DNA from: Escherichia phage vB_EcoM_KAW1E185
Direction: 5' to 3' (one strand)
Sequence record: NC_054922.1
Length of the DNA: 64,000 bases
This document shows positions 36,413-38,005 of the stretch, piece by piece (the stretch's first letter is position 1; every line of letters starts with the position of its first letter). Made by a program: the position numbers and the translations under genes. Below the pieces are notes generated by a model. It saw only the letters and a program-made list of their open reading frames with translations, was not told where the DNA came from and did not search any database.

Positions 36413-36488
36413 TGGTCGAGGCAGTAGGGATCGAACCTACGACCTAGGACTTAGAAGGTCCTTGCTCTTCCTTCTGAGCTATGCCCCG
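36413..36488 (-). tRNA. tRNA-Arg (anticodon UCU)
   Basis: Hand-folded cloverleaf, 76 nt, encoded CCA; anticodon loop CUUCUAA. Confidence 0.8.
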
Positions 36489-36492
36489 TAAT

Positions 36493-36568
36493 TGGGGTGA
36501 CCGATGGGAGTCGAACCCATGACTACGAGAATCACAATCTCGAGTTCTACCAACTGAACTACGGCCAC
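36493..36568 (-). tRNA. tRNA-His (anticodon GUG), tentative
   Basis: Hand-folded cloverleaf, discriminator C, encoded CCA; anticodon loop UUGUGAU; no encoded G-1. Confidence 0.55.
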
Positions 36569-36682
36569 ATTAATACCTACTCCAACAATCAAGATGTCTT
36601 CACACGAAATTAAGAGAAGAGTGATCAGTTCAACCCCTATAATCGCGTCAAGTAGATATTAATGTGACAGTTGTCACAAATT

Positions 36683-36757
36683 TGGCGGACGTGATAGGAT
36701 TCGAACCTATAACCAATCGCTTAACAGGCGATCGCTCTGCCATTGAGCTACACATCC
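36683..36757 (-). tRNA. tRNA-Asn (anticodon GUU)
   Basis: Hand-folded cloverleaf, 75 nt; anticodon loop CUGUUAA. Confidence 0.75.
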
Positions 36758-36761
36758 AAAT

Positions 36762-36848
36762 TGGTGGGGAGTGGTGGAGTCGAACCACCCGAGTCGCAAT
36801 GACAATGAATTTACAGTCCACACCGCTACCTCTACGGGATAACTCCCC
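36762..36848 (-). tRNA. tRNA-Tyr (anticodon GUA), long variable arm
   Basis: 87 nt; anticodon loop CUGUAAA; stem has two G-U pairs. Confidence 0.6.
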
Positions 36849-36857
36849 AAATTAATT

Positions 36858-36932
36858 TGGTGGCCCTGGGTGGAATTGAACCACCATCTGGCGATTATGA
36901 GTCGCTTGCTTGAACCTTCCAGCTACAGGGCC
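36858..36932 (-). tRNA. tRNA with anticodon CAU (elongator Met or Ile2-lysidine type)
   Basis: 75 nt; anticodon loop CUCAUAA; G1-C72 pair argues against initiator. Confidence 0.7.
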
Positions 36933-36933
36933 T

Positions 36934-37009
36934 TGGTGCTGATTGACGGAATCGAACCGCCGACCTTCTCATTACAAGTGAGTTGCTCTACCTACTAAGC
37001 TAAATCAGC
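36934..37009 (-). tRNA. tRNA-Thr (anticodon UGU)
   Basis: 76 nt; anticodon loop CUUGUAA. Confidence 0.75.
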
Positions 37010-37014
37010 AAAAC

Positions 37015-37104
37015 TGGCGGAGGCGATAGGATTTGAACCTATGAGTCGCCGGAGCGACTGCCGGTTTTCAAGACCGGTGCATTAAACCACTCTGCCACGC
37101 CTCC
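37015..37104 (-). tRNA. tRNA-Ser (anticodon UGA), long variable arm
   Basis: 90 nt; anticodon loop CUUGAAA. Confidence 0.8.
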
Positions 37105-37110
37105 AAATAT

Positions 37111-37761
37111 TTATATATTGTTAATTTGATTTAGAATTCTTTTTGCTTGAGTATGACTTACGCCAATATGCTTAGCATATTTAGACAATTCGCCACGTTT
37201 AGAAAAATCATATAATTTAGAAATTTCTATTCTTCTTTTTCTTTCATCCGCAGAAACTTTTGCTTCGTTTGCTTTTGCTATTTTACGTTTAGCTTCTTGA
37301 GAATGAGTTTTACCAGCAAAGCCATTCTTCATTAATCCATTTGAAGACCATCCTTTTAATTTTCCGTTAGAATGTGCCTTTTTAACACCCAATGAAATTA
37401 ATTCGCGTTGCTGATCTGTCATAGGATAATTATTTATATGGTCCCATCCACCTTCACCTCCAAGTTTTAAATTATACACATCTGGTCTATTTAAAAACTC
37501 TTCTGTGACAATATTTTTCTCGGCTTCAAGCATAGATTCTTTATCGTCAAAATACTCTAATATTTCTTTAGAAAAATTTTCTATACCATATTTATCTTGG
37601 GCTCTTTTTAATAATTTACCAGAACCCATATATCCATCATCTAAATTTTCGGTAGAATGCACACCAATATAAATTTTATTATTAATTTTATTTGTTATTT
37701 TATAAAGATAAAAATGCATATCAGTCCCTAATAAAGAACTGAGCGTCTCACGACGAGTCAT
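37111..37761 (-). CDS. segB: GIY-YIG homing endonuclease (SegB-like) inserted within the tRNA cluster
   Basis: 216 aa; FYLYKITN...KIYIGV GIY-YIG motif; basic C-terminal DNA-binding tail; flanked by tRNA genes. Confidence 0.8.
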   Translation of the reverse strand: MTRRETLSSLLGTDMHFYLYKITNKINNKIYIGVHSTENLDDGYMGSGKLLKRAQDKYGIENFSKEILEYFDDKESMLEAEKNIVTEEFLNRPDVYNLKLGGEGGWDHINNYPMTDQQRELISLGVKKAHSNGKLKGWSSNGLMKNGFAGKTHSQEAKRKIAKANEAKVSADERKRRIEISKLYDFSKRGELSKYAKHIGVSHTQAKRILNQINNI

Positions 37762-37765
37762 AAAT

Positions 37766-37839
37766 TGGAGCGGATAATGAGAATCGAACTCACATCATCA
37801 GATTGGAAGTCTGAGGTAATACCATTATACGATATCCGC
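37766..37839 (-). tRNA. tRNA-Gly (anticodon UCC)
   Basis: 74 nt; anticodon loop CUUCCAA. Confidence 0.8.
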
Positions 37840-37844
37840 AAATT

Positions 37845-37931
37845 TGGTGCGAGAAGTGGGACTCGAACCCACAAGGAAATCATTCCGCAGCATTTTAAGT
37901 GCTGTGCCTTTACCAATTTGACCATTCTCGC
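37845..37931 (-). tRNA. tRNA-Leu (anticodon UAA), long variable arm
   Basis: 87 nt; anticodon loop CUUAAAA. Confidence 0.8.
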
Positions 37932-38005
37932 GCTGGGAATAAAGGACTCGAACCTTTGCATCTAGCAGTCAAAGTGCTATGCCTTACCAACTTGGCTAAT
38001 TCCCA
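37932..38005 (-). tRNA. tRNA-Gln (anticodon UUG), CCA not fully encoded
   Basis: Anticodon loop CUUUGAC; abuts tRNA-Leu. Confidence 0.75.

Follow-up and report, generated by a model that had tools for sequence, protein, structure and literature searches.

The tRNA genes at positions 36413-38005 of the 64,000-nucleotide (nt) stretch of Escherichia phage vB_EcoM_KAW1E185 analysed here (sequence record NC_054922.1; below, the window) are the ordinary, already annotated ten-tRNA cluster of a T2/RB18/AR1-type Tequatrovirus, and their repertoire is not new. We are highly confident in the overall reading that this is a standard, non-essential cluster, a mosaic shuffled by SegB-type endonucleases, which combines codon supply with anti-defence and in which tRNA-His is the exception. 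The 1.9-kb stretch is 99.2% identical to vB_Eco_QOTSP and approximately 98% identical to KIT03, RB18 and AR1, and it matches 972 phage records, mostly of Tequatrovirus. RB18, AR1, KIT03 and QOTSP share with it all ten tRNAs and their order, the endonuclease gene between tRNA-Gly and tRNA-Ser, the gap ahead of tRNA-His (here called the leader) and an open reading frame (ORF), ORF116. Their records leave the leader and the homologues of the T4 stable RNAs rnaC and rnaD unannotated and label the tRNA with a CAU anticodon 'Met', and otherwise there is no substantive difference. The original prediction, which was made from the sequence alone, presented the complement as unlike that of T4. It does differ from the eight tRNAs named there for T4, a set that T4's annotation confirms, but the arrangement is found in dozens of GenBank Tequatrovirus genomes.

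The setting is that of a T-even cluster. Both flanks are syntenic with T4 at 97-99% identity (AR1 annotates the flanking genes as trna.2-4 and e.8), and the cluster lies between trna.2-4/ipI and the e-region genes, on the same strand, and begins Gln-Leu-Gly. As in T-even clusters, rnaD and rnaC follow the last tRNA, at 99% identity (35785-36044). The exact eight-tRNA complement of T4 is replaced by the complement of the RB18/AR1 type.

Gene content and mosaic structure

ARAGORN, run over the whole 64 kb, finds ten tRNA genes, all on the minus strand and with outer limits at 36413 and 38005, and no further tRNA elsewhere in the window. The tRNAs and their order agree with the original prediction, as does the gap of exactly 114 nt between tRNA-Asn and tRNA-His (36569-36682). 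From high to low coordinates the locus contains:

37932-38005, minus strand: tRNA-Gln(UUG); ARAGORN; Rfam 66 bits; identical to T4 tRNA-Gln; CCA not encoded, as in T4
37845-37931, minus strand: tRNA-Leu(UAA); ARAGORN; Rfam 59.3 bits; identical to T4
37766-37839, minus strand: tRNA-Gly(UCC); ARAGORN; Rfam 65.8 bits; identical to T4
37111-37761, minus strand: SegB-like GIY-YIG endonuclease ORF of 216 codons, between tRNA-Gly and tRNA-Ser
37015-37104, minus strand: tRNA-Ser(UGA); ARAGORN; Rfam 62.6 bits; body identical to T4
36934-37009, minus strand: tRNA-Thr(UGU); ARAGORN; Rfam 71.7 bits; 72/76 identical to T4
36858-36932, minus strand: CAU-anticodon tRNA; ARAGORN; Rfam 59.9 bits; 48/77 identical to T4 tRNA-Ile
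36762-36848, minus strand: tRNA-Tyr(GUA), class II with a long variable arm; ARAGORN; identity to T6
36683-36757, minus strand: tRNA-Asn(GUU); ARAGORN; Rfam 74.1 bits
36569-36682, minus strand: structured leader or spacer RNA of 114 nt between tRNA-Asn and tRNA-His, predicted from folding and covariation
36493-36568, minus strand: tRNA-His(GUG); ARAGORN; Rfam 65.1 bits
36413-36488, minus strand: tRNA-Arg(UCU); ARAGORN; Rfam 66.1 bits; 49/78 identical to T4 tRNA-Arg
36044-36394, minus strand: ORF116, hypothetical (ORF call), in the non-T4 cassette between tRNA-Arg and rnaD
35930-36044, minus strand: rnaD homologue (T4 stable 'species 2' RNA); 99.1% identical to T4 rnaD positions 4-119
35785-35923, minus strand: rnaC homologue (T4 stable 'species 1' RNA); 99.3% identical to T4 rnaC over 139 nt
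35711-35734, minus strand: terminator-like hairpin downstream of rnaC; 10-bp stem with 7 GC pairs and a TTTTTGG tail

Nine tRNAs, tRNA-His and tRNA-Asn among them, pass the Rfam covariance model for tRNA, with scores of 59-74 bits (E 1e-10 to 1e-14). The Tyr gene alone falls under the gathering score, its best match within the clan being tRNA-Sec at 30.9 bits. All of its 87 nucleotides (87/87) are identical to the T6 tRNA-Tyr, which has been seen on a northern blot, is functional and rescues T6 from the Septu defence (PMC13096335), and because of this identity to an experimentally validated tRNA the Tyr call stands. A covariance-model check of the His, Tyr and Asn calls therefore supports two of them by score and leaves the third under threshold, but secured by T6. 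Annotation by covariance model alone would overlook the tRNA-Tyr at 36762-36848 despite that validation. A missed tRNA-Pro is ruled out: neither the gene nor a remnant of it was found in the window by ARAGORN over the full length or by blastn-short with T4 tRNA-Pro. Relative to T4, Pro is thus absent and Tyr, Asn and His are additional, as had been claimed.

The ARAGORN label 'Met' for the CAU tRNA is a default. In E. coli this tRNA is most similar to genes annotated tRNA-Ile, which occur in 5424 of 5426 genomes and match it at 81.6% along its entire length. The orthologue in phage REP2 is annotated tRNA-Ile_CAT, and the tRNA combines the CAU anticodon with a body nearer to ileX/ileY than to tRNA-Met. 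It also has C4-G69 and C5-G68, which we take to be determinants for TilS. Judged by these features, it is most likely a tRNA-Ile2, a lysidine-dependent reader of AUA that would have the function of T4 tRNA-Ile while being a different gene; homology to T4 tRNA-Ile ends after approximately 20 nt.

T4 has its cluster at the same genomic position and on the same strand, with the annotated layout Gln-Leu-Gly-Pro-Ser-Thr-Ile-segB-Arg-rnaD-rnaC. In blastn comparison with T4, window positions 38111-37761 (Gln, Leu, Gly) are 98.9% identical, positions 37705-37431 (the N-terminal half of the endonuclease ORF) match segB at 98.9% but at another position of the locus, and positions 37105-36913 (Ser, Thr and the first 20 nt of Ile) are 94.8% identical. 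No homology is found for 36913-36044, and 36044-35702 (rnaD and rnaC) is again 98-99% identical. The mature bodies of Gln, Leu, Gly and Ser are those of T4, and that of Thr agrees at 72 of 76 positions. The CAU tRNA and tRNA-Arg, which had been counted as shared with T4, are present but are different genes from T4 Ile and Arg, with 48/77 and 49/78 identical positions, and T4 lacks Tyr, Asn, His, the leader and ORF116. The segment at 37106-37760 (655 bp) exactly replaces 80 bp, consisting of a spacer and tRNA-Pro, in Yersinia phage ZN18, which has the same cluster with Pro and without the endonuclease gene, 11 tRNAs in total.

The endonuclease ORF at 37111-37761 contains a Pfam GIY-YIG domain (PF01541, 26.8 bits against a cut-off of 22.6), with NUMOD3 just under its own cut-off. 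Over residues 15-131 it shares 97 of 117 amino acids with T4 SegB, nearly all of them within residues 15-108, and this near-identity together with the Pfam domain bears out the earlier call of a SegB-like gene inside the cluster. Past about residue 110 there is no similarity to T4 SegB; the C-terminal half is unrelated and has a NUMOD3-like motif. This half is present at 99% identity or more in 51 phage records; endonucleases from T2 and from T4-like phages of Klebsiella, Serratia and Aeromonas share it at 40-70%. On these alignments the gene is a free-standing GIY-YIG homing-endonuclease gene and a SegB domain chimera, with the SegB catalytic N-terminus and a foreign C-terminal half. Like SegB it is embedded in the tRNA cluster. 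Unlike SegB it lies at the Pro position, between tRNA-Gly and tRNA-Ser, whereas T4 SegB is inserted at Ile/Arg, and it lacks the C-terminal (DNA-binding) half found in T4. Met15 of the ORF (ATG 37717-37719) aligns with Met1 of T4 SegB, and a hairpin at 37721-37742 covers the ribosome-binding site ahead of it, T4 segB likewise having a hairpin over its ribosome-binding site (PMC2988022). The true start is likely to be Met15 (ATG at 37719), and the deposited 216-residue gene models probably start 14 codons too early.

T4 SegB cuts the 3' ends of tRNA genes at the consensus GGTTCRANTCC, prefers T2L tRNA-Asn, and drives replacement of the T2L Met/Tyr/Asn/Arg region in mixed infection (PMC2330249). 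Across phages, segB is significantly co-located with tRNAs (PMC13096335). The proposed history is that the locus is a mosaic reshuffled by SegB-type homing endonucleases, which would account for a content unlike that of T4. The chimeric segB-like gene would have exactly replaced tRNA-Pro, and a cassette of CAU tRNA, Tyr, Asn, leader, His, Arg and ORF116 would occupy the slot that holds the 3' part of Ile, segB and Arg in T4, with T2L bearing a version of this alternative cassette without His. The locus would then be a clean worked example of homing endonucleases remodelling a phage tRNA locus, with an exact swap, a domain chimera and an alternative cassette in the segB slot.

Other T-even phages show further combinations. 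The T2L Met/Tyr/Asn/Arg cassette was published in 2008 (Brok-Volchanskaya et al., PMC2330249). T2L/T2 has, like the window, the Met(CAU)-Tyr-Asn-Arg cassette and a downstream ORF, and is a substrate of T4 SegB homing. T2 keeps Pro, and its Asn and Arg genes lie 4 nt apart, without leader or His. In the sequenced T2 (AP018813, 3211-3612 of the compared stretch) a seg-like ORF, mis-annotated as 'tail sheath monomer', stands in place of tRNA-Thr; its product gives a 41% match to the C-terminal half of the window endonuclease, and it marks a third endonuclease insertion site in the cluster. In T6 (Chihara et al. 2026, PMC13096335) the Tyr, Gln, Leu and Gly tRNAs are identical to those of the window and segB lies beside the tRNAs. 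The T6 order is Gln-Leu-Gly-Thr-Met-Tyr-segB, with segB adjoining Tyr and a CAU tRNA of the T4 type, and the region compared lists no Pro, Ser, Asn or His. REP2 has Pro and has lost His by an internal deletion; its Asn and Arg tRNAs are diverged versions.

The tRNA-His gene and its leader

The tRNA-His gene shows G1-C72 and C73, encodes its CCA and carries T at position -1 (A at plus-strand position 36569). It possesses the GUG anticodon and C73 of a canonical bacterial tRNA-His, C73 being invariant in nine distinct relatives, and it lacks the encoded G-1 that pairs with C73 to form an 8-bp acceptor stem. That it combines C73 with no encoded G-1 had been noted earlier and can be read directly from the sequence. 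An alternative register providing G-1 was rejected, because the position of the CCA determines the register and a U at -1 is unable to pair with C73.

Relatives collected from GenBank and IMG/VR gave 14 distinct leaders and 10 distinct tRNA-His bodies, and cover Tequatrovirus, Karamvirus, Jiaodavirus, Moonvirus and Roskildevirus as well as unclassified contigs of about 170 kb. All 14 distinct relatives have T at -1. In a scan of viral contigs with a tRNA-His core pattern that is silent on position -1, 111 of the 116 usable genes have G at -1; the five with T all belong to this family. E. coli hisR has G at -1. In the cloverleaf alignment 97.9% of cells are paired, compared with 33-52% in slid registers, 9 of the 21 pairs show double-sided changes, and none of 500 shuffles scores as high. 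No variation is seen in acceptor pairs 1-6 (G4.U69 among them), the D-arm or C73. On this comparative evidence the gene is a selected, folded and ordinary tRNA of the gamma-proteobacterial type that lacks G-1 alone. At position 4-69 the phage tRNA-His has G4.U69, where E. coli hisR has G4-C69. One IMG/VR member of the family (170 kb) has a degenerate-looking tRNA-His, with G37 and the T-loop TTAGAAT instead of TTCGA/TTCAA, and keeps the leader and U-1.

An encoded G-1 is likewise missing from the alpha-proteobacterial (Caulobacter type) tRNA-His, a class with A73, G1-U72, an extra U20a (9-nt D-loop) and a co-evolved histidyl-tRNA synthetase (HisRS) (PMC3064791). Membership in this class is ruled out by C73, G1-C72 and the 8-nt D-loop of the phage tRNA, which must use the canonical enterobacterial HisRS. 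Phage T5 is a closer parallel in that its tRNA-His (NC_005859) also has U at -1, no G-1, C73 and an encoded CCA, although its body is only distantly similar to that of the window. It is annotated as 78 nt starting T/GTGGCTA, i.e., with U-1 included, opposite C73. The T5 record also describes a version with an amber anticodon as an effective suppressor, and the T5-type His module occurs in 489 records of T5-like phages. The lack of G-1 is thus real, conserved and found in both of these major lineages of enterobacterial phages. The T5 annotation shows it, and in the tRNA-His identity literature accessible to us we found no description or discussion of a G-1-less phage tRNA-His.

The gap ahead of tRNA-His is likewise conserved. 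Leader 36569-36682 begins with a 5' hairpin GUGACA/UGUCAC, followed by a predicted 14-bp closing helix, AUUAAUAUCUACUU / GGAGUAGGUAUUAAU, which ends exactly at -1; the minimum free energy is -32.7 kcal/mol (z -4.36). In other genera the leader is kept together with tRNA-His, the His gene following Gln after a 92-118-nt leader that aligns with the window gap, and five other leaders, some with unrelated interiors, independently fold the same closing helix (z -2.1 to -4.7). For the closing helix in 10 sequences, 98.5% of cells are paired (35-50% in slid registers), with double-sided changes in 5 of 14 pairs; in 13 sequences the figures are 98.3%, 35-52% and 3 of 14, and in either set 0 of 500 shuffles reach the score. 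Because of its many G.U pairs the structure is assigned to the tRNA-sense RNA strand. In leaders of the window class, GUCAC just 5' of the helix can pair with tRNA G1-C5, giving a potential duplex of approximately 19 bp that spans the cleavage site. On conservation and predicted folding, the gap is a conserved structured spacer RNA. No Rfam family was found for it in a permissive scan, and it is unannotated in the GenBank relatives examined.

Homology to known RNAs was considered and rejected. The gap shows no similarity to T4 rnaC/rnaD, the true homologues of which lie further downstream. As for T5 RNAIII, a 106-nt 'stable RNA with unknown functions' that lies flush against tRNA-His and has a 12-bp end-to-end closing helix, no leader gives a blastn match to it and a global alignment yields 45 identical positions, which is about chance. 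The architecture is nonetheless of the RNAIII type: a length of approximately 100 nt, a location directly upstream of tRNA-His and paired ends. The T5 helix leaves 3 nt unpaired before +1, whereas that of the window is flush. By analogy with T5 RNAIII or T4 rnaC/rnaD, the leader is probably released as a stable by-product, and it may influence 5' processing of tRNA-His.

The helix is not peculiar to tRNA-His. Further long spacers, both in the clusters of Jiaodavirus and Moonvirus and in an unrelated phage with 25 tRNAs that retains G-1, fold as closed stem-loops as well. Between 3 and 11 nt stay unpaired before the next tRNA, and the Jiaodavirus/Moonvirus helices measure 9-10 bp; these spacers may be further unannotated stable spacer RNAs. 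They weaken the case for the leader helix as a His-specific device, the His leader being distinct only in helix length and in its flush end at -1. One Tevenvirinae tRNA-cluster stretch that we examined contains two such closed spacers, at 775-870 and 956-1021. REP2 (1519-1644 of the compared stretch) retains an intact leader, 99% identical, followed by approximately 15 nt of tRNA-His debris before tRNA-Arg. We do not take this as showing that the leader is independent of tRNA-His, as REP2 arrived at a leader without His through an internal tRNA deletion. In Erwinia phage FBB1 the leader structure is reduced to a plain hairpin, and the same phage has a 249-nt spacer with a degenerate tRNA-like fragment, GGTAGAGC...GGTTCGACCCC. 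In two Enterobacter phages the leader is extended 5' by approximately 100 nt, within which 11 nt match T5 RNA I, a similarity that is not significant.

Codon supply, defence and rival explanations

To quantify codon demand we compared 78 non-overlapping ORFs of the window (17,084 codons) with 42 annotated MG1655 genes (14,790 codons). The phage uses AGA 9.6 times as often as MG1655, AUA 5.1 times, GGA 3.8 times, ACA 3.7 times, UCA 3.6 times, AAU 3.4 times (the largest absolute excess among codons), UUA 2.9 times and UAU 2.6 times. Nine tRNAs, Asn and Tyr among them, are consistent with codon compensation and His is not; the earlier suggestion of a repertoire meaningful for codon usage holds with that exception. 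In the proposed mechanism the tRNAs would supply decoding of AGA, AUA, GGA, ACA, UCA, UUA, AAU and UAU, which the AT-rich phage overuses relative to E. coli, and would also sustain translation when host defences cleave host tRNAs.

The link to tRNA-cleaving defences, also part of the original prediction, has published experimental backing, for the identical tRNA-Tyr in one study (PMC13096335) and for the Thr, Asn and Lys tRNAs of T5 in another (bioRxiv 10.1101/2025.02.04.636281). For Tyr an anti-defence role has been shown, the identical T6 tRNA acting against Septu. The PARIS nuclease AriB cuts E. coli Lys(UUU), Thr(UGU) and Asn(GUU) at U36-A-A-U-C/N41, where the slash marks the cut, and resistant T5 variants are mutated there (bioRxiv 10.1101/2025.02.04.636281). 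At positions 36-41 the window has UAAUG/A in Thr and UAAGC/G in Asn, which differ from the E. coli AriB motif UAAUC/N at or next to the cut, and these differences are suggestive of Thr and Asn variants that would escape AriB cleavage. The targets of OLD include Thr(UGU), Gly(UCC) and Pro(UGG). At positions 36-41 the CAU tRNA has UAAUC/G and the divergent tRNA-Asn of REP2 has UAAUC/A, the latter corresponding to the published AriB target motif.

Several points weigh against the reading of codon supply plus anti-defence with a working tRNA-His. The codon comparison consists of ORF calls from 64 kb set against a 42-gene host sample, unweighted by expression. Histidine codons amount to 17.3 per 1000 in the phage and 26.0 in the host sample (0.67x), and because of this depletion tRNA-His is not explained by codon compensation. 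Only for Tyr is the anti-defence role demonstrated, Thr and Asn being put forward because they differ in sequence from a published cleavage motif. When G-1 is missing, the efficiency of E. coli HisRS drops more than 100-fold (PMC5499578, PMC3064791), so that efficient charging of the phage tRNA-His is not expected. Nor did a search bring up a phage Thg1 that would supply G-1: tblastn with human THG1L (a query validated against Pfam) gives matches in 104 phages at 22-29% identity, but at this sensitivity the listed matches include no Thg1-like gene in T4-like phages of Escherichia, Klebsiella or Enterobacter, and the ten leading host names among them include none of these three genera. Finally, T4, T2, T6 and REP2 all live without a tRNA-His, and for that reason its benefit must be conditional. 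The expectation is that tRNA-His would function as a histidine tRNA despite the missing G-1, either being poorly charged or carrying a U-1 left by RNase P as a surrogate for G-1; we infer that it most likely does work as a histidine tRNA.

It has to be asked whether codon usage or endonuclease traffic could explain the cluster alone. That codon-usage compensation accounts for the whole repertoire, including the three extra tRNAs, seems unlikely to us: nine of the ten tRNAs do read codons enriched 1.5- to 9.6-fold, with AAU and UAU among the largest absolute excesses, but His codons are depleted, the identical tRNA-Tyr has been shown to act against Septu (PMC13096335), and tRNA sets vary widely among close relatives of the same codon usage, with 8 in T4, 9 in T2, 7 in T6 (six in the region compared plus one Arg, gt001, outside it) and 11 in ZN18. 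Still more improbable is the idea that selfish endonuclease traffic produced the differences from T4 as a mostly neutral side effect, with the tRNAs as unselected passengers of seg cassettes. Three seg-type insertions across phages, at Pro in the window, at Ile-Arg in T4 and at the Thr position in T2, would fit it, as would the non-essential nature of the cluster and the ability of SegB to cut inside tRNA genes and drive co-conversion of flanking markers (PMC2330249). It conflicts with the strong compensatory evolution of tRNA-His across genera, with the match between the retained tRNAs and the most enriched codons, and with the adaptive value of tRNA-Tyr under Septu (PMC13096335).

The two remaining alternatives concern tRNA-His. 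E. coli RNase P normally cuts pre-tRNA-His at -2/-1, owing to U-2, G-1 and the G-1:C73 pair (PMC5499578), and the 5' end of the phage tRNA might also lie at -1, with RNase P cutting A-2/U-1, U-1 opposite C73 serving as the G-1 surrogate that places the 5' phosphate, and the flush leader helix helping to set the site. U-1 is invariant in the 14 distinct Tevenvirinae leaders, the last 8-12 leader bases are more conserved than the tRNA body, and the leader helix stops exactly at -1 and in some leaders can extend to +5. The T5 record starts its 78-nt tRNA-His with U at -1, and C73 and the lost +73/U294 contact disfavour canonical -1/+1 cleavage (PMC5499578). Against this, the known -2/-1 determinants are U-2 and G-1:C73 (PMC5499578), in place of which the phage has A-2 and a U-1 unable to pair with C73. 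The T5 helix, moreover, is not flush but leaves three nucleotides unpaired. Where cleavage is the ordinary one at +1, U is likewise the base most often found at -1, which counts against a special role, and altogether we regard the displaced 5' end as a possibility that is rather doubtful. We give considerably less weight to a role outside translation, in which tRNA-His would stay uncharged and act through its tRNA shape, for example as a decoy or sponge that occupies a nuclease or toxin directed at tRNAs with GUN anticodons. Colicin E5 targets Tyr/His/Asn/Asp tRNAs, and the three extra tRNAs (Tyr, Asn and His) all have GUN anticodons and make up three quarters of the four-member queuosine family. 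Codon usage creates no need for tRNA-His, a tRNA without G-1 is expected to be a poor HisRS substrate (PMC3064791), and AriB has been reported to yield minor cleavage products from tRNA-His (bioRxiv 10.1101/2025.02.04.636281). A decoy, however, does not account for the invariance of acceptor pairs 1-6, C73 and the encoded CCA, as needed for aminoacylation, or for the T5 equivalent, which suppresses effectively with an amber anticodon. To our knowledge, no defence nuclease specific for tRNA-His has been described.

The repertoire itself adds nothing new, as codon supply, defence escape and SegB reshuffling have all been published for T2, T4, T5 and T6. The residual interest is in tRNA-His and its leader: G-1 is deemed nearly universal, each documented exception has been studied in its own right, and hundreds of sequenced coliphages carry a conserved G-1-less C73 tRNA-His alongside a HisRS known to need G-1. 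As a tentative generalization, T4-like Tevenvirinae and T5-like phages might both encode a selected and working C73 tRNA-His without G-1 that relies on the host HisRS, each placed after a structured spacer closed by a helix that extends to the cleavage site. Should U-1 act as a surrogate for G-1, or should the role be non-translational, this would be a new bacterial solution to tRNA-His identity or processing, and the spacer would be a processing element or a stable RNA undescribed in T4-like phages.

Transcription unit and neighbouring features

The cluster would be expressed as a minus-strand polycistronic precursor, running from upstream of tRNA-Gln to the terminator after rnaC and cut by host RNases, with the hairpin at 35711-35734 as the probable end of the tRNA transcription unit. 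Sites resembling sigma-70 promoters are no more frequent in the gap or cluster than in shuffles (11 vs 10.5). ORF116 gave no match in a Pfam search and is hypothetical in the QOTSP, AR1 and T2 annotations. It parts the rnaD and rnaC homologues, which are unannotated in close relatives, from tRNA-Arg, unlike in T4, where rnaD comes directly after Arg. A last difference from T4 concerns the 3' end of tRNA-Ser: CCA is encoded in the window (37015-37017), whereas the otherwise identical T4 tRNA-Ser has TAA there and presumably requires the host CCA-adding enzyme. tRNA-Gln is without CCA in both phages.

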